Below are positions 17,718-63,280 of a stretch of 64,000 bases of DNA, piece after piece (position 1 is the first letter of the stretch; each line of letters begins with the position of its first letter). A program made the translations under genes and the position numbers. This stretch comes from Clostridiaceae bacterium (GTDB lineage Bacteria; Bacillota; Clostridia; Acetivibrionales; DULL01). The stretch lies in assembly GCA_012840395.1 (NCBI GenBank), contig DULL01000083.1, positions 9,316 to 73,315 on the forward strand. The letters run 5' to 3'. The notes below the pieces were generated by a model, which worked only from the letters and a program-made list of their open reading frames with translations, was not told where the DNA came from and made no database searches.

Positions 17718-17798
17718 TATGCCTGTATGTATTCTGCGGTATGAGAGTTATTAAGGCAAAATACACTCAAGTACCTTTAAAATTACAGGGATAATTAG

Positions 17799-45931: not shown

Positions 45932-47635
45932 TTGTTTAAAAGGACAAGCAGCAGTATAAAAAATTTAATGGAATTATACAGATATATATCGATTTTCCTA
46001 ACATTGTTCATATATGTAGTTCATGGTATATTCCAGAACTACAATATATCTGTAATGCTTATTCTGGTTTTTTGTGTAATTATATATGCTTTCCTTTTTG
46101 GATATCTTTATAATATAAGCTTCGGTGACAAACAACGGATGGTTATTCTGCTTTTACTGGATATTGCAGGCATATCCTTCCTGATACTGCTGACAGGGGG
46201 GCTGGATAGTTCATTTATATGGTGTTTCCTTAATCCGTTGCTTGTTATATCCTATTATGCACCTCTGCGACCAAAGGTTTTATCCCTTGCAGCCAGCATA
46301 ATGTTACTATGCATTATCGGCTATATTGTTGAAGGAAAGCCGGGCATTAGGCTTTATTTATTATCCAGGTCCAATATTATTTTGAGTTTTACTTTGTTAT
46401 TGATTCTTGTTAATATACTTTTCTATTATAGCAGCCTTTTAGTAAAGAAGCAGAAGGAGCTAAGCCTTGCAAATGAAACTCTTGAAAGCTACAACAGGAG
46501 AATTAAGGGGATGACACAGGATATTTTGCATTTGTATGAGGCTGTTCAGACCATTTCAGGTTTATCGGTCCAGCAGGATGTGGCTTCTATTTTACTTGAG
46601 TTTGCAGGGAAGGTTTTCCCTGAAGCTAATGCTTTTTATTATCTTGATGACAATGGAAATACCGACAAACTTATGACCTTAAATCCGATAGATGATAATA
46701 TTTGGGATAATCTGGTGGATGATGTTAAGAGTTTGAGTGTATATAATAATACTGGTGCTGTTTCTGGTATCAGCAGGAAATTAGTAATAAATTTAGTTGA
46801 CCAAAATTTTGTTGCAGTAATAACAAGAATAACGGAAATAAAAAACTACGGAGTAATCGGCCTCCTGGTTCCTAGAGAAAAATACGGAGAGAATAAGGAT
46901 GAATATGAATCAAACCTGCTGCTCATATCACAACTGGCAACAACATTTTTTGAAAAAATAGAAGACGAAGCAGTGGGCTGTGAACTTGCTGTAGCTGACG
47001 AACAGAACAGAATAGCTGAAGATATTCATGACAGCGTAGTACAAAGGCTTTTTGCCGCTTCCTGCTTTATATATGACACACTGAAGAAATGGAATAATTT
47101 AACTGATGAACAGAAAAAGGAACAACTAAATCTTATAATGGAAACTATACGGAGTTCACTGGAGGACCTCCGTTCCACAATATATAATTTAAGCAGCAAA
47201 AAGCAGAATATCGTGCTTTTCAGGGAGAGTTTAGCTTCCTATCTTGACCAGATGGAACGGCTCAGCGGTATAAACATACACCTGGATGCCCGGGGAGACC
47301 TGGACAGCCTTTCTCTCAATGCAAGAAAGGCTATTTACAGGATAATAACTGAGTGTACGGGGAATGCCGTAAAACATGCAAAGTGCAAGAATATATGGGT
47401 TCATTTGCTGATGGATGAGAAAAATACAAAATTAACCATAAAGGATGATGGAATTGGTTTTGATTTGAGAAATAATGGAAATCGCAGTAATAACGGCCTT
47501 GGATTATACAACATAAAAAGCCTTGTAAGAATTTACAAGGGCAATTTGGAAGTTTTATCGGGAAAAGGCTCTGGCTCAACGTTTAACATAGAATTTAATA
47601 ATGACAATATTCTGAAGAAACCGGAGGCATTATAA
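45932..47635 (+). CDS. Sensor histidine kinase, NarL/DegS class (HisKA_3), with a polytopic N-terminal sensor
   Basis: About 5-6 N-terminal TM helices, a central sensor-like region, an H-box (EQNRIAEDIHDSVVQRLF) and an HATPase_c domain (NAVKHA...DDGIGF...NGLGLYNI...GSGSTF). The start is uncertain (TTG 45932 or ATG 45968). Confidence 0.85.
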   Translation: MFKRTSSSIKNLMELYRYISIFLTLFIYVVHGIFQNYNISVMLILVFCVIIYAFLFGYLYNISFGDKQRMVILLLLDIAGISFLILLTGGLDSSFIWCFLNPLLVISYYAPLRPKVLSLAASIMLLCIIGYIVEGKPGIRLYLLSRSNIILSFTLLLILVNILFYYSSLLVKKQKELSLANETLESYNRRIKGMTQDILHLYEAVQTISGLSVQQDVASILLEFAGKVFPEANAFYYLDDNGNTDKLMTLNPIDDNIWDNLVDDVKSLSVYNNTGAVSGISRKLVINLVDQNFVAVITRITEIKNYGVIGLLVPREKYGENKDEYESNLLLISQLATTFFEKIEDEAVGCELAVADEQNRIAEDIHDSVVQRLFAASCFIYDTLKKWNNLTDEQKKEQLNLIMETIRSSLEDLRSTIYNLSSKKQNIVLFRESLASYLDQMERLSGINIHLDARGDLDSLSLNARKAIYRIITECTGNAVKHAKCKNIWVHLLMDEKNTKLTIKDDGIGFDLRNNGNRSNNGLGLYNIKSLVRIYKGNLEVLSGKGSGSTFNIEFNNDNILKKPEAL

Positions 47636-47733
47636 CGAGGATGTAAGAAATTTTTCAACAATCGAAATTTTTCTTATGAATCTGGACGTTATAAGAAATA
47701 AGAAGTGTGTGGTCTGAAGGACAAAGGGTGCAA

Positions 47734-48909
47734 ATGATAATGGGCAAAAGAGAATATGAAGCGCTAATTATACTGGCTGTTATACTGTTATCGGCTATAC
47801 TTGGTATTAGGATTTTGCCGTCTTTTATAGGAACAACCGCATATCAGAATATCTTCAAGCCCTTATTCTGGTTTGCCCTTTCAGTTTATATATGGAAACA
47901 GCCTAGAGTAAGATTTAAAGGAAAGTTGAAACTCCATAAGTATATACTTATCTGGTCTGCAATATGTGGAATTGTATACATGGCTATTTTTTTTGCAGGA
48001 GGATTTATGGATGGAATAGGGGCAAGCCCATATTCAAGGAGCATAACCGGTATGCTTGTGAATGTTTTAAGTTTCGGAAGCGTAATAGTTATGATGGAAT
48101 GGGTAAGGAATTACATCATAAACAAAGTCAAGAAAAAATATCTAATTCAATTCAGTATTTTGGTGGTAATAATATTTACATTTTACAGGCTGAATCTGAG
48201 GATTTTAATGAGCGTGGAAAACTGGCAGCAGGTTATACGGTATGTAGGTGAATATGCGGGACCGGAAATAGCGTTAAATATTTTGATGGCATACATGGTA
48301 TATATTGGGGGAGAACGGCCGGCAATAATATATATGGCGCTTACAAACCTCCCCATTTGGATATCGCCTTTGCTTCCAAACCTCAGGTGGATTACCAAGG
48401 CTTTCATTGGAATTATGTCACCCGTAATATTTTTTATCATGCTGCGCCAGATTTATAAAAAGCAGGCAAAAGAGGTTAAAATAAGAGAGCAAAAAAGTGA
48501 AAAACCAACTTCCTGGATAGCTGTAAGTGTATTTTCAATTGCCCTTATATGGTTTGCTGTGGGAGTCTTTCCTATATACCCCGTAGTAATTCTTACAGGT
48601 AGCATGCAGCCTGCAATTGATCCAGGGGATATTGTTCTTTTGCAGAGGACCGATGGGCAAAACCTCAAAGTAGGAGAGATTATACAATACTGGACCGGTG
48701 AAATATTTATAGTTCACAGGATTATTTCAATAGACCAGGCCACCGGAAGGTACCAGACCAAAGGAGACAGTAACAGTGCACCAGACTCTGTGCTGGTTGG
48801 ACCCGAACAGATAAAAGGCAAGTTGATATCAGTAATACCTAAAGTTGGAAAACTAAGCATATGGCTTAGGAGAGACTATGAGTATCCGGAGGAACAAGTA
48901 GAGTTTTGA
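47734..48909 (+). CDS. Fusion protein: polytopic membrane domain of about 260 aa (unknown family) plus a SipW/ER-type signal peptidase I
   Basis: The C-terminal catalytic domain has LTGSMQPAIDPGDIV (Ser codon at 48601-48603), IVHRII (His) and KGDSNSAPD. The N-terminal region has about 6 TM helices not found in ordinary SipW. The track ORF starts at GTG 47707. Confidence 0.8.
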   Translation: MIMGKREYEALIILAVILLSAILGIRILPSFIGTTAYQNIFKPLFWFALSVYIWKQPRVRFKGKLKLHKYILIWSAICGIVYMAIFFAGGFMDGIGASPYSRSITGMLVNVLSFGSVIVMMEWVRNYIINKVKKKYLIQFSILVVIIFTFYRLNLRILMSVENWQQVIRYVGEYAGPEIALNILMAYMVYIGGERPAIIYMALTNLPIWISPLLPNLRWITKAFIGIMSPVIFFIMLRQIYKKQAKEVKIREQKSEKPTSWIAVSVFSIALIWFAVGVFPIYPVVILTGSMQPAIDPGDIVLLQRTDGQNLKVGEIIQYWTGEIFIVHRIISIDQATGRYQTKGDSNSAPDSVLVGPEQIKGKLISVIPKVGKLSIWLRRDYEYPEEQVEF

Positions 48910-48959
48910 CAAGCTGCTTTTAACCAATCTCGACAAGTCTGTGCACAGGAGGGAAACAG

Positions 48960-50030
48960 ATGAATTTAAGCCTGACATTAAATAAAAAGAGAATAGTTAT
49001 TGCGGTTGAAATACTACTGGTACTTTTCTTCTGTATTAATACCTTATTGGAGATATTAGTTCCGAAATATACGGATGCAGAGAGAGTAAAGTTTGCATAT
49101 ACCAGCAAGGCCAATATAGACTACAGGGTATACCTGAGGCCGAATATCATATACCGTGAGAGTTTTCTGGAAAAGGGAAGATATTATATATTAAAATATA
49201 TCGATCATGTAAACTTGAATATGAAATACGATTTTATCTCATCGGATGAAGCTGACTTAACTGCAGTTTACAGTGTTACTGCATATCTTCAGGGACTTCA
49301 TGGAGAAGAAAATGAGGTGCTTTGGAGCAGGGAATATATTTTGATCCCAGAAAAAACTATACATAGGAATTCTTCCGATTTATCAATTGAACTGAGCGAA
49401 AATGTTTCCCTCAGTGAATTTCTGCAGGTCAGGGAATCTTTCTACCTTGAGTCGGAAGTAAATTCTCCTGCAGTACTTAATGTGGTTTTTTCAGTACATA
49501 CAAAAGCAGATTCCAAGGAAGGGACCCTGGAAGACAATTTAAAAACAAATTTAATTATACCGATAGGAAACAACGTGTTTAAAATAGAAGGTACCCCGGA
49601 AGCAAGGGGTGAAAACAGAATTCCAGAAACTATAAGAAACCGTATTCCTGTTAATTACTTGAAAGTTGCAATATTCCTTGTAATTTCACTGCTGCTGGTT
49701 GTACTGGTGATTCTTACCATACGTTACGTCAAAACCGCAGAGCCTCCGGATCCATTTAATAAGGCCATTGCAGATATATTCAAGGAATACTCTGAGAGAC
49801 TTGCAGGTATGACCCATAGTATATCCTACCATTTTTCTGATGTGATAACAGTTAATTCAATTGAAGATATGATTAAAATAGCAGATGAAATAGGACAGCC
49901 TGTCTTCTACTACAAGGTTGACAACAAGGTTGAAAGGAAAATAGAGTTTTTTGTATTTGACAGCGGCAGAGTCTATTATATGGCAATATTTGGTGAGATT
50001 AAACCGGAAAGTGAAGAAAGTTCCATATAA
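48960..50030 (+). CDS. Bitopic membrane protein (DUF5305-like; assignment tentative)
   Basis: 356 aa: TM1 (IVIAVEILLVLFFCINTLLEIL), an extracytoplasmic beta-rich domain of about 195 aa, TM2 (VAIFLVISLLLVVLVILTI) and a cytoplasmic tail of about 100 aa. Lies adjacent to the signal peptidase gene. Confidence 0.55.
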   Translation: MNLSLTLNKKRIVIAVEILLVLFFCINTLLEILVPKYTDAERVKFAYTSKANIDYRVYLRPNIIYRESFLEKGRYYILKYIDHVNLNMKYDFISSDEADLTAVYSVTAYLQGLHGEENEVLWSREYILIPEKTIHRNSSDLSIELSENVSLSEFLQVRESFYLESEVNSPAVLNVVFSVHTKADSKEGTLEDNLKTNLIIPIGNNVFKIEGTPEARGENRIPETIRNRIPVNYLKVAIFLVISLLLVVLVILTIRYVKTAEPPDPFNKAIADIFKEYSERLAGMTHSISYHFSDVITVNSIEDMIKIADEIGQPVFYYKVDNKVERKIEFFVFDSGRVYYMAIFGEIKPESEESSI

Positions 50031-50227
50031 ACTGTTTATCATAAATATACTACCTTGGTACCATATCATATGCCACTATGGTATTATTGTAATTATTCCT
50101 GGAGTTCTGAAGAATTATCAAATCGTGTGATTTACTTCAAATGATAAGCTTGTATAATTAAATTAAGAATTAATTAACGGTTAAGAATGTTAATGTCAAA
50201 ATGATGATATGAAAATAGAGGGGAGAA

Positions 50228-50800
50228 ATGAATATGAAGAGGACAAGATTTGTTTTGTGGGTTATTGTAGCAGCAATGGTTCTTATGGGCGCCGGATACG
50301 CAGCATGGTCACAGACATTTACGATAAACAGCACTGTACAGACTGGACACTTATATGTAAAAGTTCAAAAGGCTATTGAGGACCCAAGTATCGATATTGA
50401 TGAAGGTGTAAATTCTACAACAGTAAACTTTACTATTACTGATATGTATCCTGGAAAAAGTGTTCAACATGTGTTGAGATTCACCAATCAGGGAACAATG
50501 CCGGTAAGATTAAAATTTAATAGTGGTACTTATCCAGAAAATGATCCTCTTTGGAGAGATCTTGTAATTGAGGTTAACGAAGAAGAAGTTAAATCAGCAG
50601 GTGACACTGATATAGAGGATGTAGGAAACAAAATAGCAGAAATACTGACAAATCCGGTACTTGCTGTAGGTATTACAAGAGATATTACAATTACACAGAC
50701 ATTGGATATAAGCAGCACGGATGAAACTGAAAGTTCATCAATAAGTTGGAGCCTGGGTTTTGTATTTGAACAGTATAATGCTCCTGTCATTAATCCATAA
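50228..50800 (+). CDS. TasA/CalY (camelysin)-like secreted protein, paralog 1 (putative major fibre subunit)
   Basis: Signal peptide ends ..VLMGAGYAAWSQTF, followed by QTGHLYV, MYPGKSVQHVLRFTNQGTMPVRL and the C-terminal SWSLGFVFEQY. Strong RBS GAGGGGAG. Confidence 0.7.
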   Translation: MNMKRTRFVLWVIVAAMVLMGAGYAAWSQTFTINSTVQTGHLYVKVQKAIEDPSIDIDEGVNSTTVNFTITDMYPGKSVQHVLRFTNQGTMPVRLKFNSGTYPENDPLWRDLVIEVNEEEVKSAGDTDIEDVGNKIAEILTNPVLAVGITRDITITQTLDISSTDETESSSISWSLGFVFEQYNAPVINP

Positions 50801-50884
50801 TCTTAAACCAGGAATAAATAATTACTAATAGTAAAAAAGGAAAAAAACAAACCCGAAAGTTAATCAACGATAAAACGATAATTT

Positions 50885-50918
50885 GAATGGCACAGGCAGA
50901 CATAGGCTTGTGCCATTC
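50885..50918 (+). other. 10-bp hairpin immediately after paralog 1 (possible partial terminator or mRNA stabiliser)
   Basis: GAATGGCACA (50885-50894), 14-nt loop, TGTGCCATTC (50909-50918). It is followed by CTTAAAAAAAA, with no U-tract. Confidence 0.4.
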
Positions 50919-50996
50919 TTAAAAAAAAGCAAAAGCTGAAGAATAAGCAGGGATACAAGTAGTGCCAAGTACGGGCGGAATTTGGGGGATATTTAA

Positions 50997-51686
50997 ATGT
51001 TGGGTAGTTCTAAACGCCTTTTATCAATAACAGTTATAGCACTGGTACTAATTGGACTAAGCTATACTTTATCCTTTCAGGAGGGATTTGTTGAAGCAGC
51101 GCTTACCAATGCCACCCTGATTGAATTAGTACCTGATGAATGTAAAGTAATAAATACCAGCAAGAATTTGGAAGCCGGCGTGTCTTTTATAAAGGATGAA
51201 TTTGGTAACATTGTGGATAAAACATATATCATGCTTTCAACCAAAAACGTTTATGCAGGCGCCAGTGCTACCTTTTGCATAACTGCACGGAACATTAGCG
51301 ATATTCCCTTATCTGTTGATCAGTTTACTCTCCATGTTGATAGCAGGAAGGACTCCATATCTGATCTTATGTATTTTTCCGGAAAAGTAAAAATATACAG
51401 GAATGATGGAGTATATTACGATGAACTTGGCACCTTCAGCAACATCAACCTGGCTGCACTTGCAGACAACTTGACATCATTGACGAAATATAGGAAAATT
51501 GATTCCGGAGAAAAACTGGTACTTGAATTACAGCAAAAGTTTTCTGTGGATTCTGAAAAATTTGTTGGGAAAGTTGGCTTGTCATACAGACTGGAACCGG
51601 TTTTTGTCCAGTATTTTCCCAAAGAAGAAGAATTAGAAGAAGAATTATTGGTCGGGAACAATAGTAGGGATGAAAATGTTTCTTAA
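50997..51686 (+). CDS. TasA/CalY-like secreted protein, paralog 2
   Basis: Signal peptide ..LVLIGLSYTLSFQEGF, then NATLIEL, VYAGASATFCITARNISDIPLSV and LSYRLEPVFVQY, with an acidic C-terminal tail (EEELEEELL). Confidence 0.65.
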   Translation: MLGSSKRLLSITVIALVLIGLSYTLSFQEGFVEAALTNATLIELVPDECKVINTSKNLEAGVSFIKDEFGNIVDKTYIMLSTKNVYAGASATFCITARNISDIPLSVDQFTLHVDSRKDSISDLMYFSGKVKIYRNDGVYYDELGTFSNINLAALADNLTSLTKYRKIDSGEKLVLELQQKFSVDSEKFVGKVGLSYRLEPVFVQYFPKEEELEEELLVGNNSRDENVS

Positions 51687-52191
51687 GAGATACAAGAATA
51701 AGAAAAAGTGCAAATTTGGAAATCTTCTTCATGTAGGAACAATGTGCGTTGTCCTTATTGGAGCATTGAGCCTTCTTGGAATATCTTATTCTTCCTGGAG
51801 CCAGTCTTTTAGCATTTTTGGCTCCATATCCACAGGAGAAATTAACCTTGTTGTAAAAGATGTAGTATTGGATAGCTCCGATAGTTATGATTCTCTTAAC
51901 TTTAATGTCAACAAGACAGGAAATATTGTAGATTCAGTTAATATGGAAGTAGTGTCTGGTTCAAATCCTTTTAATACCGTACTGGTATTTACTGTTGAAA
52001 ATAGTGGAACAATACCTGTGGCATGTGAAGGTATTGACACAGATGCGCCCGGAAGTGTTGATGTACAGTTGCTTGAATCTCCTGAAAGGATATATCCGGG
52101 AGAGAGTGCTCAAATTAAAATTAAGATTGCAAAAGGTTATGTTAACAACTTTGAATTCAGTACTTTTCTTAGATTTGCACAGAAAATTTAG
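51670..52191 (+). CDS. TasA/CalY-like secreted protein, paralog 3
   Basis: Signal peptide ..LSLLGISYSSWSQSF, then STGEINLVV, VLVFTVENSGTIPV, IYPGESAQIKIKI and FSTFLRFAQ. Overlaps paralog 2 by 17 nt. Confidence 0.65.
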   Translation: MKMFLKRYKNKKKCKFGNLLHVGTMCVVLIGALSLLGISYSSWSQSFSIFGSISTGEINLVVKDVVLDSSDSYDSLNFNVNKTGNIVDSVNMEVVSGSNPFNTVLVFTVENSGTIPVACEGIDTDAPGSVDVQLLESPERIYPGESAQIKIKIAKGYVNNFEFSTFLRFAQKI

Positions 52192-52197
52192 GCAAAC

Positions 52198-52806
52198 TTG
52201 ATTCACTTTATTGAGGTGATTTATATAAAAAAACTGGTTTTAATAGTATTTATTATAATAATATCTATACTTTGTACAACAGTAAGCTTCGGATTATGGA
52301 GGTATAATTCCGAGGTCAGGTTTACAATAACCATTAAACAGCCTGAACAAGACTACGGTTGCTGTATTTGTGGTAAATATAGCACAATACGGGAAGGTAT
52401 AGATCTTTTAAGAGATGTACAATATCCGAAAATATATAACAAGATGGAGCAGTATAAAAATATGTTGTATGCACGGATAGACGAGCTTAATAATCTTCCC
52501 TTTGGAGGCATCACATATGAAGAGCTGGATGCAGAAGTAAATAAATATAGAAATGTTGATATAGAAGGATTTGGTAATTGTATTGAGACATATGGAAATT
52601 GTATAGTTACCCTGGGTGAATTTTATGAGAATTCAACACCAGAAGAAAAGAAGCAGGTCCCTAATTTCTGGACTGAGTCGTCTGGTCTTTGGATTTTGCA
52701 TTCTCAGCTTTGGACAAAACGCTCTGAGCTTTATATTGTAGTAAGTGAACTCTGGACCGCCGGACAAAGCAAAATAAACTGGGAGAATGAAGACGGCGAA
52801 GGGTAA
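52198..52806 (+). CDS. N-terminally anchored protein with a Cys cluster and C-terminal aromatic heptad repeats
   Basis: TM segment/signal LVLIVFIIIISILCTTVSFGLWRYNSE, a QDYGCCICGKY cluster, GFGNCIETYGNCIV, and five heptads (PNFWTES SGLWILH SQLWTKR SELYIVV SELWTAG). The start codon is uncertain (TTG 52198, or later after GAGGTG at 52213-52218). Confidence 0.55.
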   Translation: MIHFIEVIYIKKLVLIVFIIIISILCTTVSFGLWRYNSEVRFTITIKQPEQDYGCCICGKYSTIREGIDLLRDVQYPKIYNKMEQYKNMLYARIDELNNLPFGGITYEELDAEVNKYRNVDIEGFGNCIETYGNCIVTLGEFYENSTPEEKKQVPNFWTESSGLWILHSQLWTKRSELYIVVSELWTAGQSKINWENEDGEG

Positions 52807-52864
52807 GGTAAGGGAGGTAAAGAAGGCAATAATTAGTAATGAGAATGATACATTATTATAACAA

Positions 52865-53524
52865 TTATTCAGTCATATTCCCATTGCTATTTTTGCCTTT
52901 GTTTACATAAATTGCTGCCTGTAATCTGTTACTTAAATTAAGTTTTGCAAGAATGCTGCTAACATGTTTTTTTACAGTATTTTCGCTTATATAAAGTTTT
53001 TCTGCAATACTCTTGTTAGACATTCCTTTCCCAAGACAGTCTAGAATTTCAGCTTCTCTGGGAGTCAGCAATTCATCTTCACCTTCAGATTGTTGCACAG
53101 TCTGGCTCTGTACAGGAGTATTTATTCTTTCCAAAAAAACAGGGTCGAAATATTTTCTACCTCTAATAACAGACTTTACGGCATATACAATATCTTCAGT
53201 AAATGCATCTTTTAAAATATATCCGTCAATATTCAATTTCATAGCCCTGTCAAAATCCTCGGTAGATGAAGAAGATGAAAGTATAACATATTTGCAGTTA
53301 GGAAATTTTTCCTTTGCCATACGTATGAAATCGATTCCACTTTGATCTTTTAGCCTTATATCTACCAGAGCCAGATTATAGTCATTATTTGACATCAGTT
53401 CCAATGCTGACTTTACATCGTGAGCAAAATTAACATTATTTATATCTTGTTCAGAGATAAGTATATTCCTAATGCCGATGCAAACCAGGGGATGGTCGTC
53501 AACAATTAAAATATTCATATACAT
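52865..53524 (-). CDS. NarL/LuxR-family response regulator (REC domain plus LuxR HTH)
   Basis: MNILIVDDHPLV...LVDIRL (receiver domain) and LTPREAEILDCLGKGMSNKSIAEKLYISENTVKKHVSSILAKL. ATG 53524 lies 6 nt after AAGGAA. Confidence 0.9.
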   Translation of the reverse strand: MYMNILIVDDHPLVCIGIRNILISEQDINNVNFAHDVKSALELMSNNDYNLALVDIRLKDQSGIDFIRMAKEKFPNCKYVILSSSSSTEDFDRAMKLNIDGYILKDAFTEDIVYAVKSVIRGRKYFDPVFLERINTPVQSQTVQQSEGEDELLTPREAEILDCLGKGMSNKSIAEKLYISENTVKKHVSSILAKLNLSNRLQAAIYVNKGKNSNGNMTE

Positions 53525-53710
53525 CAGCTCTTCCTTAACTATACTGTATTTTAGTACAATAATATTTACCATAAAATATTTATGTATATTTATATAATAT
53601 TTTATATATTTTTTTGAATAAAATCTATGCTTTTTATAGTATAATTTTTGACAACTTATGAAAAAGAAAGTGAGCCAGAAGAAATACCTTTCTGGCTCAC
53701 TGCAGATTCG

Positions 53711-54358
53711 TTAATCAGGAAGCTGTTTCTTATAATATTGATTGGATATTTGATCCATTTTATCTACAATTCCCTGTTCATCAATTCTATTTGTATAGTA
53801 TTCCTCATAATCATTATATCCTCCCATATCCTGTGGAGAGTCGGAAGAACCATATTTTACTAAGTCAAAGAATTGATCCATACCTTCATGTTCGTCATCT
53901 TCCTGACTATTTAGATATTTTCTTCCCAGAGGCGCGTCCATAACCAATTCTTCATTTGGCCTGTCCATATTAGCTTTCATGGGAGTTTCATTGCCAGCTC
54001 TGTTTTTTTCACAGTATAAACATGTTGTGGCATGTGGCACAGCTTCAAGTCTTTCTTTTTCTATCTCCTTACCACACACTTCGCAATTTCCAAAGACACC
54101 TTGGTTGATTCTCTCCAATGCATCATTGGTTTCTCTTAATTGATGTTCCTGATGGGTTATCAGCGAATTATTAAATTCTGCCTGAAAAAGTTCCGAAGCT
54201 ATTTCTGCAGGGTGGTTATCATAGTTTGATAACTCCGCGGGAGAATATTTATCCTGGTTTGACATACCATGTTTTTTCATTTTTCTTAATGTTTCTTCAA
54301 AATTATTTTTTCTATTTACAAGTATTTCCTTAAATTTATTAAGCTCATTTATTTCCAT
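53711..54358 (-). CDS. YteA-like DksA/TraR C4 zinc-finger protein
   Basis: CEVCGKEIEKERLEAVPHATTCLYC zinc finger preceded by a coiled-coil. 215 aa, the YteA family length. Confidence 0.75.
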   Translation of the reverse strand: MEINELNKFKEILVNRKNNFEETLRKMKKHGMSNQDKYSPAELSNYDNHPAEIASELFQAEFNNSLITHQEHQLRETNDALERINQGVFGNCEVCGKEIEKERLEAVPHATTCLYCEKNRAGNETPMKANMDRPNEELVMDAPLGRKYLNSQEDDEHEGMDQFFDLVKYGSSDSPQDMGGYNDYEEYYTNRIDEQGIVDKMDQISNQYYKKQLPD

Positions 54359-54569
54359 TAAGTTTTCCTCCCTATAGAATATTGTAAAATAACAAATTGC
54401 ATATTATTGGCAAAGGTTTTTTGAACACCATTACATCCTGGATATAGTATGAGACTTATTTTTGAATCTATAGCTCCCTTAATTAAGCAATTAATTGAAT
54501 AGTTTTCACGAATAATATTCTTAATACTGTAGAAAATAATAAGGAAAATAAATATAAAGGAGGGATTAT

Positions 54570-54770
54570 ATGCCGCCTTTGACAACAAAGGAACTTCTTC
54601 TTATTCAGGACAATATTAAAATGACTCAAAACACTATAAGCTTTATGAACAGCTGCGCGCAAATAGCGACAGATCCGCAGGTTAAAAGCTTATGCCAGCA
54701 AATGGTAAGAGATCATCAAAATGATTTGCAGGTTTTAATGAAACATATTAAGTCAACAACAGTTCAATAG
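54570..54770 (+). CDS. Small spore-coat-associated protein (CotF-related)
   Basis: 66 aa (TTKELLLIQDNIKMTQNTISFMNSCAQIATDPQVKSLCQQMVRDHQNDLQVL). Paired with the following Coat F-like gene. Confidence 0.55.
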   Translation: MPPLTTKELLLIQDNIKMTQNTISFMNSCAQIATDPQVKSLCQQMVRDHQNDLQVLMKHIKSTTVQ

Positions 54771-54781
54771 GAGGTGGAACA

Positions 54782-55033
54782 ATGGCTAATATTACAGATA
54801 AAGATATTATGGAGGTGTTGCTTACTCAGCACAAATTAGGAGCTATTTCATTAACTAATCTGGTTCTTGAAAGCAGCTGTCAGAATGTAAGAACTGATGC
54901 AACAAATCTTCTCACAAAAACTTTCGAGCATCAGAAACAAATTTATGATATCATGTCCCAAAAAGGGTGGTATCAAACTATGACAGCAAGTCCGCAGGAA
55001 ATTAGTAATGTACAAACCAGTTTAAATATGTGA
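54782..55033 (+). CDS. Spore coat protein F (Coat_F domain)-like
   Basis: 83 aa (DIMEVLLTQHKLGAISLTNLVLESSCQNVRTDATNLLTKTFEHQKQIYDIMSQKGWY). Confidence 0.65.
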   Translation: MANITDKDIMEVLLTQHKLGAISLTNLVLESSCQNVRTDATNLLTKTFEHQKQIYDIMSQKGWYQTMTASPQEISNVQTSLNM

Positions 55034-55162
55034 TATTTAACAATTTTTTTTATAAAAACATAATGACAGGCAGTTTATCTAAGAACAAGGTGGCAGGTTA
55101 AAAGAAAAAGGCAGGATTTAATTCCCGCCTTTTCACTTATTTTTATTATTTATATAATACTA

Positions 55163-55342
55163 CTATTTGCTGTAATTGTTTCCAGTATATGCTTCAAACA
55201 CTTTCTTAACTATATTACCACCAATTTTACCTGCGTCTCTGGCAAGTAAGTCACCATTGTAACCTTGCTTTAAGTTAACTCCAACCTGGGAAGCTATTTC
55301 ATATTTCATGTTTTCAAACTGAGACTTGCTTTTCTTAGCCAT
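55163..55342 (-). CDS. Alpha/beta-type small acid-soluble spore protein (59 aa), below the ORF-track cutoff
   Basis: Hand translation: MAKKSKSQFENMKYEIASQVGVNLKQGYNGDLLARDAGKIGGNIVKKVFEAYTGNNYSK. It matches the SASP pattern (KYEIA..GV.L.......R..G..GG.....). GGAGGTG RBS precedes ATG 55342. Confidence 0.85.
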   Translation of the reverse strand: MAKKSKSQFENMKYEIASQVGVNLKQGYNGDLLARDAGKIGGNIVKKVFEAYTGNNYSK

Positions 55343-57135: not shown

Positions 57136-58971
57136 ATGAAAACTCTACTGGTGGCACTGAACTCAAAATATATTCATTCATCCCTGGCAGTCTGGTATTT
57201 AAAAGCATATTGCAGTAATGAAGATGAACAGGCATACAACGGGGTGGAGATAGCTGAGTACACAATAAATGATAATATTGAGAGCATATTAGGTTCTATT
57301 TGCTTAAAGAAACCCGAAATAATATGTTTTTCATGCTATATATGGAATATAGAGTATGTTCTTAAACTTACAAGAAATATTAAAAAGCTTATGCCTGAAT
57401 GTATCATTATTCTCGGCGGACCGGAAGTTTCTTACGATGCCGAAAAAATTATGGAAGCAGAACCTTCAGTTGATTTTATCATTTCAGGAGAGGGAGAAAC
57501 AGCCCTAAAAAATCTATTACAGCATATCCGGCAGGGACAGGTATCACATTTTACGCATATAAAACAAATCAGGGGATTGACTTACAGAGAAAAAGGTGAA
57601 ATAAAAAGCACCGAGCCCTGTACCCTTATTGAAAATTTAGATGAAATCCCTTCTCCATATACTGATGAATTTTTTATTTTACTCAAAAACAGGATAGTTT
57701 ACTATGAGTCTTCAAGAGGATGTCCTTTTAATTGTTCCTATTGCCTTTCTTCTACCATAGCCGGTGTAAGGTATTTTTCTCTGGACAGGGTAAAAAAGGA
57801 TATTTCCATACTCATTAGCCGTAATGTAAGGCAAGTCAAGTTTGTAGACAGGACTTTTAACGCAAATAAAAAGAGGGCCAAAGAAATATTTAAGTATATC
57901 ATTGAAGAATCTGCTAAAACAAGGTCGGATATTAACTTCCATTTTGAAATGGGAGGAGACCTTTTTGATGAAGAAATGTTGGATATACTGAGTACAGCGC
58001 CTCCCGGACTTATACAATTCGAAATAGGTGTTCAGACTACCAATCAGGATGCATTAAAAGAAATAGACAGAATAACAGACTACGAAAAACTAAAAAACAA
58101 TATTCAAAGATTAATAAGCAATGGAAATATTCACATCCACCTGGATTTGATAGCAGGCCTTCCCTATGAGGATTATGAATCATTTATTAAATCCTTTAAT
58201 GATGTTTATAGTTTAAATCCCCATCATCTTCAGCTTGGTTTTCTGAAATTGCTGAAAGGTTCAAAAATAAGGAGACAGTCCGGACTGCATGGCTATATAT
58301 TCAGGGATTATCCTCCTTATGAAGTTTTAAGCAACAAATATATTTCATATAATAGGATTCTGACTCTGAAAGCTGTAGAGGAATTAGTGGAAAGGTACTA
58401 TAATTCAGGCAGATTTACCATTTCACTGAGATATATAACTAAAAAGATTTTTCACAAACCCTTTGACTTTTATTATAGTTTCAGCAAATATTATGAGACT
58501 TGTGGATACTATGAAAAATCCTTAGGAGCAAAGGAATTATACAGGGTACTTTATGAATTTATTGAGGCAGTAGCAGACCAAAGCAGCCTGAACCTAATTA
58601 AAGATCTGTTAAGACTGGATTTTCTGAAATGCGACAGTTCCGGAAGCCTTCCCGATATATTAAAAAGTGATACTCCCAAAGAATTTAAAGATGAATGTTT
58701 TCAATTTTTAAGAGAAGAAGATAACATAAAGAAATACCTTCCCGGCTTTAACGGCATGACAGCAAAAGACATGTACAAAAAAGTACATTTTCAAATATTT
58801 GATTATAATATCTTCTCATGGAAAGATGATATCCCAAAGGAGAAGGTTATTCCTGAAAAGACAGTGGTCCTGTTTGATTATACAAAAAAAGACAGGGTTA
58901 CCGGGTGGTTTACCTTCACCAAGCTGGATACTTCGTATTTCCCGTCTTTAAGCTCACAAAATAAGCCCTGA
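57136..58971 (+). CDS. B12-binding-domain radical SAM protein with a DUF4080-like C-terminal extension
   Basis: N-terminal cobalamin-binding-like domain, a radical SAM core (YESSRGCPFNCSYC) and a long C-terminal region. Confidence 0.8.
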   Translation: MKTLLVALNSKYIHSSLAVWYLKAYCSNEDEQAYNGVEIAEYTINDNIESILGSICLKKPEIICFSCYIWNIEYVLKLTRNIKKLMPECIIILGGPEVSYDAEKIMEAEPSVDFIISGEGETALKNLLQHIRQGQVSHFTHIKQIRGLTYREKGEIKSTEPCTLIENLDEIPSPYTDEFFILLKNRIVYYESSRGCPFNCSYCLSSTIAGVRYFSLDRVKKDISILISRNVRQVKFVDRTFNANKKRAKEIFKYIIEESAKTRSDINFHFEMGGDLFDEEMLDILSTAPPGLIQFEIGVQTTNQDALKEIDRITDYEKLKNNIQRLISNGNIHIHLDLIAGLPYEDYESFIKSFNDVYSLNPHHLQLGFLKLLKGSKIRRQSGLHGYIFRDYPPYEVLSNKYISYNRILTLKAVEELVERYYNSGRFTISLRYITKKIFHKPFDFYYSFSKYYETCGYYEKSLGAKELYRVLYEFIEAVADQSSLNLIKDLLRLDFLKCDSSGSLPDILKSDTPKEFKDECFQFLREEDNIKKYLPGFNGMTAKDMYKKVHFQIFDYNIFSWKDDIPKEKVIPEKTVVLFDYTKKDRVTGWFTFTKLDTSYFPSLSSQNKP

Positions 58972-59057: not shown

Positions 59058-59086
59058 TTGTAAAATATGGTAATATTATGTATAAT
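59058..59086 (+). promoter_or_regulatory. Candidate sigma-A-type promoter for the TadE/TadG-like operon
   Basis: TTGTAA (59058-59063), 17-nt spacer, TATAAT (59081-59086). The background is AT-rich, so a chance match is possible. Confidence 0.35.
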
Positions 59087-59178
59087 ATTTAAAAATATAC
59101 AATATTTATGTTGTTTTTTGTTAATTATTTAATCCCTGAGTGAAGTAAGTTTTATTAGCTTAGGCAGTGGAGTGGGCA

Positions 59179-59850
59179 ATGAGAATTAATTTATACAGTT
59201 CAAAAGGAAGTATGACCATTGAAGCTTCTATTATTATGCCTGTTATTATTTTATGTGTTATTGCATTATTGTTTATACCTGTCTATCTGTATAAACAGAC
59301 TTCTCTCCACAGCATGACAAATAAAGCTGCTGAAAGGGCATATGTTGTATGGAGAAATGTTAACGGAGATATGGAGACAGGCAAAGTCCTGAAAGAAGAA
59401 TTAAACAGTGACAGCCTTTATAGAAGAATGTATGATCCTTTCAAAGATATCCGGCTGGAAACTGTAAGAAGCTTTATAGAATCCAAACTGTCAAAAAAAG
59501 TTGTTTTTCCCGGGAATAAAGCCAATGAGGGTCCGGAAGCGGAAATTACTCTAAAAGATAATTTAATTTTAAAAAATTTGGATCTAACTGTCAAAGATAC
59601 TGTGGGAATTTTTACAGAAAATTATCTTGGGCTTTTTGATCCAGGAAAAAACTATTCTTTTAATTCATCCTCAACTGCTTTTATTTATGATCCTGCGGAA
59701 TTTATAAGAAATGTTGATTTTCTTGTAGAAATAAAGAAAGAGCTGGAAAAAGAATACCCGGAGCTTCAAGATACCAGCGGTAAATTAAAGGAAAGATTGA
59801 AGGACATCAGTAAATGGATTGAGAAAGCAGCTAATAAACAAGTTGATTAG
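59179..59850 (+). CDS. TadE-like pseudopilin-type protein
   Basis: The N-terminus SSKGSMTIEASIIMPVIILCVIALLFI fits the Flp/TadE prepilin pattern: G, then Glu at +5, then a hydrophobic helix. ATG 59179 follows GGAG. Confidence 0.7.
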   Translation: MRINLYSSKGSMTIEASIIMPVIILCVIALLFIPVYLYKQTSLHSMTNKAAERAYVVWRNVNGDMETGKVLKEELNSDSLYRRMYDPFKDIRLETVRSFIESKLSKKVVFPGNKANEGPEAEITLKDNLILKNLDLTVKDTVGIFTENYLGLFDPGKNYSFNSSSTAFIYDPAEFIRNVDFLVEIKKELEKEYPELQDTSGKLKERLKDISKWIEKAANKQVD

Positions 59851-59865
59851 AAAGGAAGATCGGCA

Positions 59866-62229
59866 TTGGGGGGCAATAAAGGTCAAGTATCGGTATTCTT
59901 ATGTATAATTTTTATGGCAGTATTTATTGTAGTAGGAGTTTTAGTGGATGCTTCAAGAATTATATCCGGCAAATCCCAGGTAGAGAGATCAGTTGCAAAT
60001 GCAGCCCGCTCTCTTCTGGCAGATTATAGTACAAGTATAAAAGAGTATTACGGAATTTTTGCCATAGATAATAACAGGGAGAAAGATTTAACCAATGTAG
60101 CAAGAGATTATCTTGAAAAAAACCTGGCTATTGGGATTGAAGAACTGCAAAATATTAATTTTTATAACTTCAAGGTAGAGAATATATCTGTAACACCCCT
60201 ATTCAGCCTGACAGGAGACCAGACGGTAAAAAATCAGATACTTGAATATATGAAATATAGTGCTCCTAAACAAGTGATAGAAAATTTGTGGCATAAGATC
60301 TTAATGGTAAAGGAAGCAGGCAAGGTTGCAGATACCTATAACAGGAAACTGAATGTGGAAAAGCTTTCCGCCCAGATAGGAGAGCTGCAGCAAAAACTTA
60401 AAGAAAAAATAAGCGGAACTATAGGAAACGGAATTTTTCAGGAATTCTTCATAAATAAATTTAATAAAGATGGAATTAGAAGTTCAGCCATTGAAAGCTA
60501 TGCAGAAATAACTATCAGGCAAAGTACCCTCTATAGGGAATTGAATGCAGCATATGAACTTATGAGACAGATAGAGGGTAAGCTTCATGAAAATGACAGC
60601 AATGAAGAAGCAGGGGGGCTAAAAGAAAAACTGGATATGCTCCTGGGCAGGATTAAAATGATGGAGGATGAGCTGGATATTCTGAAGAATGAAAGAGATT
60701 CCATGGAAAAAAGACTTAAGGGTGAGCTGACCGGTAGATATCTGGAAATTAATAAAGAAGCAAGGCAGATAATAGAAGATATCAGAGAGGTTAAAGAAAA
60801 GATAGAGGCTGCTATAGCGGATTTTGAGAATTATATGGATAACAGTCCTGCTGATGCCCATTCTCCATATCATAGTGTTCTGGAATCCATCAAAGAAGAT
60901 GTGGATTATATAAAAGATAATGTACTGAATGGTGAAACAACAGAAGAATTAATTAAGATTATTGAAAATAACATAACTTATCTTGAAAATGCCATGGAAA
61001 GACTTAACCGGGCATCCAGCCTGAACTGGCAGGAAATTGACCAGGATTCGGGAAAAGAGTGGATAATCAGTCTGCTTAAAGAAGGATTCGGAGATTATAT
61101 CAATATTATTGAATATGACTATAAGAAAGCGGGAGAGCCTGTCACAGCACCGGATCCCAGAGAAGGAATGAAAAAGGAAACAGAAGAAATTCTAAAAAAA
61201 GACAGAGAGGATGAAGACATAAAGAATGTTAGAATGGAAGAGGCAGGAATTAATATTAGTGAGCTTCCCTCAAAGAATAAATATTATGACGAGGATTTAC
61301 CGGCCTTTGAGGGCGGACTGGAAGATTTGCCCGGAGAAATAGACATTAACCAAAATGACAGCAGATTTGTCCATAATGTCTTCAATTACATGGGGAACAT
61401 AGGTAATATTTGCGGGGATTTTGAAGAATTCAGGGATGATCTTTACATTAATGAATATATAATGAAGGTATTTAATAACCAGGTTTCGGTGCAGGGAAAA
61501 AATAAAGCGGAAGGCAGTTCCTCTGTAAATAAAAATAGGGACTCTTTTTTCAATAGTGAAGTGGAATATATACTTCATGGAGATTCCTCAGAAAAAATCA
61601 ATAAAATGAAAACAAAAGCGCAAATACTGCTAATAAGATTTTCCATGAACACCCTGCACGCCTATTCCGACAGCAATAAGAGAGAGCTTGCAAAAGGTAT
61701 TGCCGCAGCAGTATCGGGATGGTGGACTGCAGGGGCTGGTATACCAATAATATCAAACATGGTTTTGTGCGGCTGGGGCTTAGGGGAGGCCATAATTGAT
61801 CTTGAAGATTTACTGGAAGGAAAAGCCGTTCCTTTCTATAAACTTAAAGGGGACTGGAAACTTGATCTGGGGCCCAATATCCGGCAAAACCCCAGTAGTA
61901 AAGGGAATAACCCAAGTCATGAAAGCGAAAGAGATATTTCAAGCCCTAAGAGTAACCCTGGACTGATGTTTGACTATAATGACTATCTGAGGATATTCCT
62001 GATGCTTGTGAATACAGAGAAAAAAATAGGCAGAATTGAAGATTTGATTGAATTAAACGGAAGGAAAGCCAATAGTGCTTTCAGAGCCACCAATTGCAGT
62101 ACCTGGATAAAAGTAGAAGCAGAGGTTTCACTGAATTATCTTTTTTTAACCTCTGCGTTTATGCCGGGAAGTAAAAAAACCGGGGAAGGTAGGCATATCT
62201 TCAGGGTGGTATGGTATGAAGGATATTAG
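59866..62229 (+). CDS. TadG-like (Tad N-terminal domain) protein, 787 aa, with a long coiled-coil region and a hydrophobic C-terminal segment
   Basis: The N-terminus GNKGQVSVFLCIIFMAVFIVVGVLVDASRIISGKSQVERSVANAARS fits the TadG-like N-terminal domain. Residues about 150-400 are heptad-rich and charged. The C-terminal part includes EVEYILHGD... and AAAVSGWWTAGAGIPIISNMVLCGWGLGEAII. Confidence 0.7.
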   Translation: MGGNKGQVSVFLCIIFMAVFIVVGVLVDASRIISGKSQVERSVANAARSLLADYSTSIKEYYGIFAIDNNREKDLTNVARDYLEKNLAIGIEELQNINFYNFKVENISVTPLFSLTGDQTVKNQILEYMKYSAPKQVIENLWHKILMVKEAGKVADTYNRKLNVEKLSAQIGELQQKLKEKISGTIGNGIFQEFFINKFNKDGIRSSAIESYAEITIRQSTLYRELNAAYELMRQIEGKLHENDSNEEAGGLKEKLDMLLGRIKMMEDELDILKNERDSMEKRLKGELTGRYLEINKEARQIIEDIREVKEKIEAAIADFENYMDNSPADAHSPYHSVLESIKEDVDYIKDNVLNGETTEELIKIIENNITYLENAMERLNRASSLNWQEIDQDSGKEWIISLLKEGFGDYINIIEYDYKKAGEPVTAPDPREGMKKETEEILKKDREDEDIKNVRMEEAGINISELPSKNKYYDEDLPAFEGGLEDLPGEIDINQNDSRFVHNVFNYMGNIGNICGDFEEFRDDLYINEYIMKVFNNQVSVQGKNKAEGSSSVNKNRDSFFNSEVEYILHGDSSEKINKMKTKAQILLIRFSMNTLHAYSDSNKRELAKGIAAAVSGWWTAGAGIPIISNMVLCGWGLGEAIIDLEDLLEGKAVPFYKLKGDWKLDLGPNIRQNPSSKGNNPSHESERDISSPKSNPGLMFDYNDYLRIFLMLVNTEKKIGRIEDLIELNGRKANSAFRATNCSTWIKVEAEVSLNYLFLTSAFMPGSKKTGEGRHIFRVVWYEGY

Positions 62230-63280
62230 GAACAGTATGGGAGATGCCAGGTTTTACATGAAGGATACCAGAGGGTCTGTAACTTTAGAGGCCGCCATTG
62301 CACTTCCGGTTTTTATATGTGTAATTATATCCGTCACATTTCTGATAAGAGTGGTACATATTAATGAATCCATAAATTATGCCTTAAACGGGGCAGCTAA
62401 TGAATTGGCAGCTTCCAGTTATCTATATCATGTAAGCAGAATTGAGGAACTTGAAAAATTACCTGAAGATGCCATTGAAAATATGGTAGATGGAATGGCG
62501 GAAGGAATCCTGGGAAGCACGGATGATCTTCCTGAAGAACTTAAAACCCTTGTAAAAAACATTATAAAAGGGAACTTCGAGGACCTGAAGACAGAAATCT
62601 GTATTCCCATTGTAAAATTATATTTCAAGAAGTATTTACCGGACTTCCCTTTGGGAAACCTGGATTTTTCCCATTCCAGTTTTTTTGAAGAAGATACCGG
62701 AGATATTGATATAATTGTAAGGTACAATGTTAATATCCCGCTTCCTGTGAAAATTCCCCAGATAATTTTTACTCAGAGGGCTTCTGTGAAAGCATGGCTT
62801 GGAGGCGATGAAAAGGAAAATAGCCCTGTGACAGGAGAAATCGATAATATTTGGTCTTTAAGCAATTTTGAAAGAGGAAGGAAAATAAGAGAGATTTTTG
62901 GAGCCAATCTTCCATATAATTTTCCAGTGCTATCAAAATTCGAAGGAGGAAAGGCCACAGTAATTAAAAGTATGGATTTAACTGCAGACACTTATAAAAC
63001 CCCTGAAATGGTGATTAAGAAAATAAGTGAATATATGGATAATCTTGCACAATACAAAGGGCAGGAAATACCCTGGGGAAGCAGCAAGATACTTATCATG
63101 GAAAAAGACATAATAATTAGAGAACTGTTGCTGGTAATCCCTTCAAATGAAATATCTCAGGAAATAAAGGAAGCTCTTGATTTTTGCGTAATACAAGGAG
63201 TAAATAAAGATGTTATATTAAGAATTGAAAAGTATGGTTATAGTTATAGGTATGATAAGCCTTCTAAAGAAAGTGTATAA
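62216..63280 (+). CDS. TadE-like protein with an uncharacterised C-terminal globular domain of about 150 aa
   Basis: The N-terminus TRGSVTLEAAIALPVFICVIISVTFLI shows the G/+5 Glu pattern. The C-terminal domain includes IWSLSNFERGRKIREIFGANLPYNFPVLSKFEGGKATVIKSMDL. Overlaps the upstream gene by 14 nt. Confidence 0.7.
   Translation: MKDIRNSMGDARFYMKDTRGSVTLEAAIALPVFICVIISVTFLIRVVHINESINYALNGAANELAASSYLYHVSRIEELEKLPEDAIENMVDGMAEGILGSTDDLPEELKTLVKNIIKGNFEDLKTEICIPIVKLYFKKYLPDFPLGNLDFSHSSFFEEDTGDIDIIVRYNVNIPLPVKIPQIIFTQRASVKAWLGGDEKENSPVTGEIDNIWSLSNFERGRKIREIFGANLPYNFPVLSKFEGGKATVIKSMDLTADTYKTPEMVIKKISEYMDNLAQYKGQEIPWGSSKILIMEKDIIIRELLLVIPSNEISQEIKEALDFCVIQGVNKDVILRIEKYGYSYRYDKPSKESV

Follow-up and report, generated by a model that had tools for sequence, protein, structure and literature searches.

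A detached Tad-type minor-pilin operon of Clostridia with a predicted pilin that carries a degenerate toxin-nuclease fold

Introduction

Three adjacent genes on a contig of a clostridial metagenome-assembled genome (MAG) code for proteins with N-termini like those of the minor pilins of the Tad (Flp, type IVc) pilus, and the question raised by this locus is what such a set serves when no other part of a Tad system is encoded beside it. The contig (DULL01000083.1; 80,727 bp) originates from a biogas-fermenter metagenome; NCBI assigns it to a MAG of Clostridiaceae, and GXX20_09670 and GXX20_09675 are its locus tags. The stretch analysed here, called the window, covers contig positions 9316-73315 (64 kb), and coordinates below are those of the window unless contig positions or other loci are named. 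The three genes, designated g1, g2, and g3 (Table 1), had been described in an original prediction, made from the sequence of the window, as an orphan TadE/TadG-like trio that either depends on distant machinery or forms an autonomous envelope structure. Relatives of all three were found inside complete clostridial Tad loci, which identifies the trio as a putative detached minor-pilin block, and the C-terminal part of the third protein was recognized as a fold of contact-dependent inhibition (CDI) toxins with a degenerate active site.

The trio and its N-terminal signals

Public annotation of the source contig agrees with the open reading frame (ORF) calls used here on three genes, which code for 223, 787, and 354 aa. 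The genes g1 and g2 are 15 nt apart, and the 14-nt overlap of g2 and g3 is the only one in the trio, so the description of three overlapping genes holds for the second pair and not for the first.

Each of the three proteins has one strong N-terminal hydrophobic helix on the Kyte-Doolittle scale, with a peak of 2.95 at residues 17-35 in g1 and of 2.79 in g3. As read from the sequence, g1 begins with MRINLYSSKG/SMTIE, which places Gly10 at -1 and Glu15 at +5, and the N-terminal region of g3 contains KDTRG/SVTLE, with Gly20 at -1 and Glu25 at +5. The N-terminus of g2 is MGGNKG/QVSVF, where Phe stands at +5 instead of Glu. Among 49 homologues of g3, Glu25 was invariant, Gly20 was conserved in at least 90%, and Thr23 was nearly invariant. 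When about 40 orthologous loci were compared, the motif (K/R)G-S-x-T-V-E-A was found in g1 and (K/R)G-A/S-x-T-V-E-A-A in g3, while the orthologues of g2 always had G-Q/A-I-S/T-V-F/Y in place of the Glu+5 signal. Judged from these alignments, the conservation of Gly-1 and Glu+5 in the families of g1 and g3 is far beyond chance, and both proteins are predicted to carry Tad-type class III signals with cleavage after the Gly.

Profile searches with hidden Markov models (HMMs) placed the window copies at the borderline. With the Pfam TadE model (PF07811, gathering score 22.9), g1 reached 22.6 bits and g3 reached 21.3 bits, and the Tad N-terminal domain (PF13400, cut-off 22.3) gave 20.4 bits on g2. 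Orthologues passed the TadE gathering score with 24.6 and 23.6 bits; PF07811 is precomputed on many homologues of g3, and PF13400 on the g2 homologue P0013. The g1 protein and the N-terminal module of g3 are also homologous to each other (hhalign probability 95.7%, E 9e-9). The proposed Tad minor-pilin type of the N-termini was thus confirmed, with Gly-1 and Glu+5 in g1 and g3 and with a TadE/TadG homology that the profiles did not reject, and the TadG-type N-domain expected in the trio was borne out for g2.

Relatives inside complete Tad loci

Three complete clostridial Tad loci, designated L005, L091, and L092, were examined. Three independent and distant DUF5702 proteins related to g2 (P0013, P0014, and P0015) are all encoded within complete clostridial Tad loci, and the gene order there is a TadZ-like gene, TadA (T2SSE), TadB, TadC, Flp1_like, a TadE-like gene, DUF5702, a gene of about 235 aa, Peptidase_A24, and FHA. 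The g1 protein aligns over its full length with the product of a 234-aa gene located between flp and the DUF5702 gene in a complete Tad locus. For the N-terminal 55 aa of g3, the best match is a 232-aa gene that precedes tadV (31% identity, E 6e-6); beyond these residues the similarity is weaker and scattered, and the 232-aa gene is without the extra C-terminal domain. All three relationships between the trio and the Tad loci were detected by phmmer. Homologues of g1, of g2, and of the N-terminal module of g3 thus lie between flp and tadV, and by this homology the trio is a paralogue, dispersed to another locus, of the minor-pilin block TadE-DUF5702-TadE in the Tad loci of Clostridia.

The likeness to this block consists in direct, distant homologues arranged in the same order (TadE-like, DUF5702, TadE-like). 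The differences are that the copies in the Tad loci are embedded among machinery genes, whereas the trio of the window is detached and has a predicted promoter of its own, and that the third gene of the Tad-locus block (about 232-294 aa) has no module like the one at the C-terminus of g3. In one clostridial Tad locus, an extra lipoprotein-like gene lies within the block; it is absent from the trio of the window.

The large subunit

DUF5702 (PF18960) was recognized on g2 at residues 521-755 with 164.4 bits, against a threshold of 26. The AlphaFold2 (AF2) model of g2 is mostly helical (mean predicted local distance difference test, pLDDT, 75; predicted template modelling score 0.65), with an N-terminal helix, very long antiparallel helices at about 135-405, and beta strands at 102-111, 748-756, and 777-786, of which the last two are terminal. 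A Gly/Trp-rich helix-loop-helix at about 603-650, within DUF5702, is moderately hydrophobic (Kyte-Doolittle 1.53). Of the features foreseen for this protein, about 250 aa of coiled coil and a Gly/Trp-rich hydrophobic C-terminal segment, the first is seen in the long helices and the second only in this moderately hydrophobic hairpin. No significant fold match beyond generic coiled coils was obtained when the model was compared with the PDB.

The length of 787 aa, at first regarded as unusual, is ordinary for DUF5702 proteins, which span 640-1121 aa. Relatives of g2 range in total from about 455 to 1121 aa, and the differences are read here as mostly those of the length of the coiled-coil stalk, which fits a spacer function. 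A further homology search with the g2 alignment added nothing to the 13 proteins already known, probably because coiled-coil words swamped the word index. In the literature search, no mention of the DUF5702 family was found. Its placement in the Tad loci and its N-domain assign DUF5702 as the predicted TadG-equivalent large subunit of clostridial Tad systems.

Distribution, neighbourhoods, and promoter

A genome scan with one genome per species, run with a pattern from a 31-sequence subset of the g3 alignment, returned 80 loci. As an isolated operon, the trio occurs in about 70 species-level genomes of two clostridial groups, in three conserved neighbourhoods, which agrees with the suggestion that it might be an isolated block conserved in Clostridia. 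In an exhaustive profile search, 418 cluster representatives were found at E <=1e-30, and 2272 at E <=1e-10, the latter with toxin domains among them. The carriers met in this analysis are largely from biogas and anaerobic-digester metagenome assemblies.

In the first neighbourhood, found in about 40 genomes of the Acetivibrionales/Hungateiclostridiaceae type, the order is dacB, a gene for a B12-binding radical SAM protein with DUF4080, g1, g2, and g3. The second was found in about 32 genomes labelled Mageeibacillus, Fastidiosipila, or Saccharofermentans, and consists of genes for a penicillin-binding protein (PBP), an MGS-like protein, and a metallo-beta-lactamase (MBL) hydrolase, followed by the trio and SecA, the last being a large gene identified by its N-terminal sequence and not by a family search. 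In the third, that of Acetivibrio clariflavus, lexA and a LysM gene precede g1, a g2 of 1055 aa, and g3. The three different conserved neighbourhoods suggest that the trio moves as a block.

The radical SAM/DUF4080 gene stands directly 5' of the trio in the window as well (57136-58971, forward strand). It lies directly before g1 in about 32 of the about 40 Acetivibrionales-type loci; in others it is either missing or 1-4 kb off, the latter in L017, L026, and L053, and the other two neighbourhoods do not have it. Its adjacency is probably a matter of synteny rather than a functional link.

The trio of the Saccharofermentanales type consists of a g1-like gene of about 95 aa, a g2-like gene of about 455 aa (DUF5702, 28.7 bits), and a g3-like gene. 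In all 15 copies of its first gene that were compared (from L048-L088; for example L054 8286-8573 and L050 4264-4551), an invariant Met stands directly before the conserved residues, as in M-(A/G/S/N)-F-(S/T)-(L/I)-(E/D). If this Met is the true start, the product would be a leaderless pseudopilin that lacks Gly-1 and has its acidic residue at +5 when counting starts at residue 2, and its maturation might proceed through Met aminopeptidase rather than prepilin peptidase. A leaderless first gene in this type would therefore mean that peptidase processing is not universal in the family.

A sigma-A-type promoter was predicted in the window about 95 nt 5' of the start codon of g1 (Table 1). It consists of TTGTAA, a spacer of 17 nt, and TG followed by TATAAT. 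By eye, about 25 of 35 orthologous loci were judged to have a TTcACA-like -35 element followed by TGGTGTATAAT or TGGTGTATTAT in front of g1, and promoter k-mers were enriched there in comparison with shuffles. The recurring element therefore points to a conserved vegetative-type promoter of the trio itself, separate from the upstream radical SAM gene. In the leader of g1, no Rfam element was found at E <=1; a riboswitch, such as that for c-di-GMP, was among the elements searched for.

Missing machinery and type IV parts elsewhere in the window

Profile HMMs for TadZ, TadA, TadB, TadC, Flp, and the A24 peptidase were built from the three clostridial Tad loci, and none of them had a match in any frame of the 64-kb window. 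Outside the window, the contig was read at positions 1359-9315 and 73316-80727, where ordinary housekeeping genes and no Tad gene were found. The Flp HMM detected no Flp pilin in the 195-nt gap 5' of g1, among the small ORFs of the window, or in the 80 loci, and TadA, TadB/C, Flp, and PilT had no match within 10 kb of the trio in about 75 loci. The trio is accordingly an orphan, as predicted, with no tad locus adjoining the window and with Tad-free contig stretches around it.

The only type IV filament gene of the window codes for an ATPase of the PilT family and lies 13 kb 5' of the trio (Table 1). The former statement that no Tad genes lie within 4 kb of the trio holds; this ATPase is of the type IVa system and falls outside those 4 kb. 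No pilB, pilC, or pilD was found near it, and since a PilT gene is present, parts of a type IVa pilus are implied elsewhere in the genome. Directly 3' of the PilT-family gene, a HisKA_3 histidine kinase is encoded at 45932-47635 on the forward strand.

Two of the orthologous loci have a prepilin peptidase gene close to the trio. In L013, a 144-aa Peptidase_A24 (48 bits) is encoded at 5158-5592 on the forward strand, and its start codon overlaps the stop codon of g3. In L061, a 161-aa Peptidase_A24 (44 bits) is encoded at 6552-7034 on the reverse strand, 1.3 kb from the trio.

A nuclease-toxin fold at the C-terminus of g3

An extra domain of about 150 aa had been noticed in the third protein. 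It is present, and it was identified as a catalytically degenerate nuclease fold of CDI toxins. In the AF2 model of g3 (mean pLDDT 81), a long helix at 24-73 is followed by further helices and by strands at 163-172 and 183-192; a flexible linker at about 199-208 has pLDDT <50, and in the C-terminal module pLDDT is mostly >90. The Pfam family CDI_toxin_EC869_like (PF21111) was recognized on g3 with 39.6 bits (cut-off 27). When the module was compared with the PDB in Foldseek, two significant matches were obtained, both of them CDI DNase toxins: 4G6U_A, the CdiA-CT of EC869/TA271 (E 1.9e-8, root-mean-square deviation 2.2 Å, 141 columns, 23% identity), and 4ZQU_A of YPIII (E 2.3e-7). The family profile of g3 also matched 4ZQU_A among PDB sequences (E 1.7e-6).

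The active site of EC869-type toxins is formed by Glu177, Asp198, Ser209, and Lys211 (PMC9086364). The columns of the last three were fixed by the 4G6U alignment with a numbering offset of +5. The Glu177 column could not be fixed from sequence, and an acidic helix residue conserved in the toxins was compared in addition to the three. Six genuine toxin termini fetched in the same scan, among them those of a CdiA-like haemagglutinin-repeat protein and of an Rhs protein, were compared with 77 pilin-fused members. All six toxins have E or D at the helix position, D at Asp198, S at Ser209, and K at Lys211. Of the pilin-fused members, 65 have R and 9 have Q at the helix position; at Asp198, 62 have A, 11 have S, and 3 have D; at Ser209, 37 have M and 26 have S; and at Lys211, 73 have K. 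The g3 of the window has R225, S240, V249, and K251 at these positions. The Asp198 equivalent is thus replaced in 73 of the 77 pilin-fused members, and the full catalytic set is kept in none. Across the three neighbourhoods no downstream gene is conserved, which leaves no candidate for a conserved immunity gene, and in the window the gap between g3 and the following flavin reductase gene is only 50 nt.

These results bear on whether g3 could be a toxin delivered by a pilus, with the pilin part as the export carrier of an EC869-like DNase that is still active and kills cells nearby. The PF21111 score above threshold and the strong fold match to CdiA-CT DNases would suit such a role, as would the occurrence of this domain at the ends of genuine CdiA-like and Rhs toxins (L085, L087). 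The reading is nevertheless very improbable: the Asp198 equivalent and the acidic residue are lost in most members and the complete set in all of them, the 50-nt gap leaves no room for an immunity gene, and the gene is vertically inherited and not polymorphic. It was rejected on account of the loss of the active site together with the missing immunity gene. By comparison of these sequences, the module is a toxin fold that has been domesticated and is almost certainly no longer a nuclease, and it probably now serves as a displayed binding or structural module.

Genuine toxins with PF21111 were also met in the scan. With intact catalytic residues, it is the last domain of a CdiA-like protein with haemagglutinin repeats in Phascolarctobacterium and, in Flavobacterium, of an Rhs/DUF6443 protein; the genuine toxins are located at L085 1910-5761, L087 6230-10384, and L090. 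True CdiA and Rhs carriers were confined to L085 and L087, which are unrelated loci. In Clostridium sp. KNHs205, a large protein ending in PF21111 (L090 3420-8738) precedes an orphan copy of the toxin module (9998-10402) that is nearly identical to the first.

Table 1. Location of the trio, of its protein modules and predicted promoter, and of the PilT-family gene in the window
Feature	Position	Strand	Description
Sigma-A-type promoter of the trio (predicted)	59058-59086	+	consensus scan, 10/12 matches
g1	59179-59850 (ORF from 59167/59179)	+	TadE-like pseudopilin, 223 aa
g2	59866-62229	+	TadG-type large subunit, 787 aa
g2, N-terminal anchor	residues 6-30		G/QVSVF, no Glu+5
g3	62216-63280	+	354 aa; pilin module and C-terminal module
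g3, pilin module	62216-62839	+	residues 24-192; helix and small helix/sheet domain
g3, C-terminal module	62840-63280	+	residues ~209-345; EC869-type PD-(D/E)xK nuclease fold
PilT/PilU-family type IVa retraction ATPase	44829-45893	+	TIGR01420, 337 bits, cut-off 319

Possible function of the trio

The reading favoured here, with moderate confidence, is that the trio is a Tad-type (type IVc) minor-pilin set which serves distant filament machinery and forms its tip or priming complex. In such a system, g1, g2, and g3 would insert in the membrane through their N-terminal helices, and g1 and g3 would be trimmed after the Gly by a prepilin peptidase of the A24 family whose gene lies at another place in the genome, with TadV, or PilD of the type IVa system implied by PilT, as the candidate enzyme. 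The three proteins would then form a heterotrimeric priming or tip complex, in which the large member without Glu5 would cap the tip. The complex could be lifted on a filament polymerised by the ATPase and platform of a distant Tad or type IVa locus, and the stalk of g2 and the dead nuclease of g3 would be exposed outside the wall, where they would form a head with a binding or structural role. DNA is one candidate ligand.

In favour of this reading are the homology to Tad-locus genes, the conserved class III signals, the A24 genes close to the trio in L013 and L061, the PilT gene in the same genome, the three neighbourhoods in which the block recurs, the two-module layout of g3, and its dead active site. 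Clostridium thermocellum and A. clariflavus, which carries the trio, presumably belong to one group. Two pil operons and one tad operon are known in C. thermocellum, and it is common for pilin genes to lie outside a biosynthesis operon (PMC3244431).

Several points weigh against this reading. In about 75 loci, the surroundings of the trio up to 10 kb away contained no assembly ATPase, platform, or major pilin, nor did the contig stretches read, and the partner machine is therefore purely inferred. The TadE scores of the window copies of g1 and g3 are just below the Pfam threshold, and the first gene of the Saccharofermentanales type has neither leader nor Gly-1. The vertical, core-like synteny beside dacB, PBP, and SecA is unusual for accessory pilus parts and agrees equally well or better with a constitutive role in the envelope.

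Such a role is expressed in the alternative that the trio forms an autonomous envelope complex, which is possible but doubtful. It would be a fixed, wall-spanning structure anchored in the membrane by the pilin-like helices, with or without trimming, in which the coiled coil of g2 would be the stalk and DUF5702 with the dead nuclease the head; there would be no filament, ATPase, or platform, and the organisation of the wall or surface and ligand capture are its possible jobs. The constant isolation of the block from assembly genes, the conserved core-like synteny, the sigma-A-like promoter of its own, and the leaderless first subunit in one clade are in favour of it, as is the variable length of g2, if read as that of a wall-spanning spacer, and the Gly/Trp-rich hairpin of g2 could be a second membrane contact. 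What argues against autonomy is the strict Gly-1/Glu+5 signal on two subunits and its loss on the third, the signature of filament-incorporated pseudopilins, which a mere anchor would not need. The paralogous block, moreover, sits inside complete Tad loci, and two loci (L013 and L061) have gained a TadV-type peptidase. We know of no pseudopilin complex described to work without an ATPase, which also counts against this alternative. Between dependence on distant machinery and autonomy, the evidence leans toward dependence.

A bolder form of the autonomous structure is unlikely: a motor-independent device of Acetivibrionales- and Saccharofermentanales-type Clostridia, with a stalk of processed pseudopilins and the dead nuclease as a head that acts as receptor for extracellular DNA or another polymer. 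If true, it would be a pseudopilin complex operating outside any type IV filament machine.

As a sub-case of the minor-pilin reading, g3 could be a DNA receptor at the filament tip, where the inactive nuclease would bind extracellular DNA for uptake or for anchoring in a biofilm. Lys251, the equivalent of Lys211, is kept in 73 of 77 members, and a basic RGRK motif is kept as well, while the metal-binding acidic residues are lost. The window encodes, besides PilT, a ComEA-like DNA receptor (SLBB and HHH_3; 33508-34326, forward strand), which stands alone with no comEC adjoining. As precedents, Flp/Tad-dependent transformation is reported in Micrococcus luteus (PMC4322843), and ComZ is a DNA-binding modular pilin (PMC8179133). 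However, ComEA is near-ubiquitous in Firmicutes and thus weak evidence, and the module is basic in only part of the family: the median pI is 9.0 (range 4.4-10), yet 22 of 76 members have an acidic pI, and that of the window copy is 6.6. The charge analysis as such is compatible with or without DNA binding, neither supporting nor excluding it, and specific DNA reception at the tip is considered quite improbable.

Two further functions were considered. A role in sporulation, prompted by the neighbouring SASP (small acid-soluble spore protein), CotF, dacB, and YetF, is unsupported, as the upstream element of the trio is a sigma-A-like -35 with an extended -10. To our knowledge, spore formation is not known among cultured relatives of the carriers of the Saccharofermentanales type. 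Anti-phage defence of a kind that combines a coiled coil and a nuclease, such as Lamassu or Wadjet, was rejected: PADLOC gave only JetC on the coiled coil (E 0.066, 9 bits) and no match on g1 or g3, and a search of PHROGs for a phage origin gave nothing.

Comparison with known systems

TadE/TadF and TadG belong to the Tad pilus of Aggregatibacter and, as CpaJ/K, of Caulobacter, according to Tomich et al. 2006 as cited in PMC3244431. The two small subunits of the trio resemble them in the G/xxxxE class III signal and, at borderline scores in the window copies, in the TadE HMM match, and the large one resembles TadG in its PF13400-type N-domain and in having no Glu+5; all three genes are, by their layout, co-transcribed. 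The trio differs in its place outside a tad locus, with no flp, tadV, tadA, tadB/C, or tadZ on the contig stretches read, and in its order, which is E-G-E and not E-F-G. Furthermore, its large subunit is a DUF5702 coiled-coil protein, and one of its small subunits bears a nuclease-fold module.

The GspI-GspJ-GspK tip and the minor-pilin priming complex of type IVa pili are also sets of pilin-like proteins of low abundance, and the priming and capping of a filament proposed for the trio is like theirs. GspK is the largest member, has no Glu5, and contains a big inserted helical domain (PMC8179133). The g2 protein is likewise a large subunit without Glu5 and with a large helical region, which is an analogy only, since no sequence or fold relationship to GspIJK was detected, and the signal of the trio is Tad-type and not of the N-methyl-Phe type.

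Modular type IV pilins have been surveyed by Raynaud et al. 2021 (PMC8179133), with PilB (vWA) and PilC (lectin) of Streptococcus sanguinis and ComZ of Thermus thermophilus as examples. In its model, g3 is built like these, from a pilin module, a short flexible linker, and a module that would fold independently. Its carrier is of TadE type and not IPR012902, and the word "Tad" does not occur in the text of the survey. As far as could be found, a Tad-type pilin with an inactivated nuclease-toxin module is an undescribed architecture.

With the CdiA-CT DNases of Escherichia coli EC869/TA271 (4G6U) and Yersinia pseudotuberculosis YPIII (4ZQU), g3 shares the PD-(D/E)xK fold and the core NFPxI...IKSMDLTA..YQ. 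Unlike in these toxins, Asp198 is replaced by Ala or Ser in the g3 family, Ser209 often by Met or Val, and the acidic residue by Arg; an immunity gene of the CdiI type is missing, a TadE-type pilin takes the place of CdiA, Rhs, or another polymorphic-toxin carrier, and the inheritance is vertical.

Tad pseudopilins, DUF5702, and the PF21111 fold were already known, and orphan pilin operons are not rare. As far as could be found, a widely conserved, detached TadE-DUF5702-TadE operon is new, and so is the assignment of DUF5702 as the clostridial equivalent of TadG. The trio indicates that a complete minor-pilin set can separate from its machine and persist long as its own operon, which raises the question of which filament, if any, it serves. 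It also appears that a DNase domain of polymorphic toxins was captured by a pilin and inactivated; the toxin-derived module and its Tad-type carrier would widen the range of modular pilins. In digester organisms, a conserved surface device could matter for attachment to substrate or between cells.

Other features of the window

A 763-aa ORF at 11473-13764 on the reverse strand has no convincing family; only PsbP was recognized, below threshold (E 4.5e-4).

The region 47707-53572 looks like a SipW-dependent fibre or matrix operon. It encodes a 400-aa protein with a long N-terminal extension, the C-terminal third of which is an archaeal/SipW-type signal peptidase I (TIGR02228, 70 bits), a DUF5305 protein, and a divergent LuxR-type response regulator. 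Four small proteins of 190, 229, 173, and 202 aa have no family, and one of them weakly matches the archaeal pilin UpsA (E 0.001). The 202-aa ORF at the end of the cluster (52198-52806, forward strand) has a Trp-rich repeated tail (SGLWILHSQLWTKRSELYIVVSELWTAG) and no family match.

A sporulation-linked cluster follows at 53711-55342. It codes for a zinc-finger protein of the DksA/TraR type (215 aa, reverse strand) and a Coat_F protein, and contains a 66-aa ORF (54570-54770), the orthologues of which in L001 and L009 weakly match DUF2383. An alpha/beta-type SASP is encoded at 55163-55342 on the reverse strand, and the source organism is a spore former.

Two RNA elements were predicted, both on the forward strand. 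A T-box leader at 8155-8396 (129 bits) lies 5' of the genes at 8560-10214, which code for an AsnC-type regulator and an aminotransferase, and a purine riboswitch at 17631-17732 (87 bits) lies 5' of a xanthine/uracil permease gene and a pur operon.

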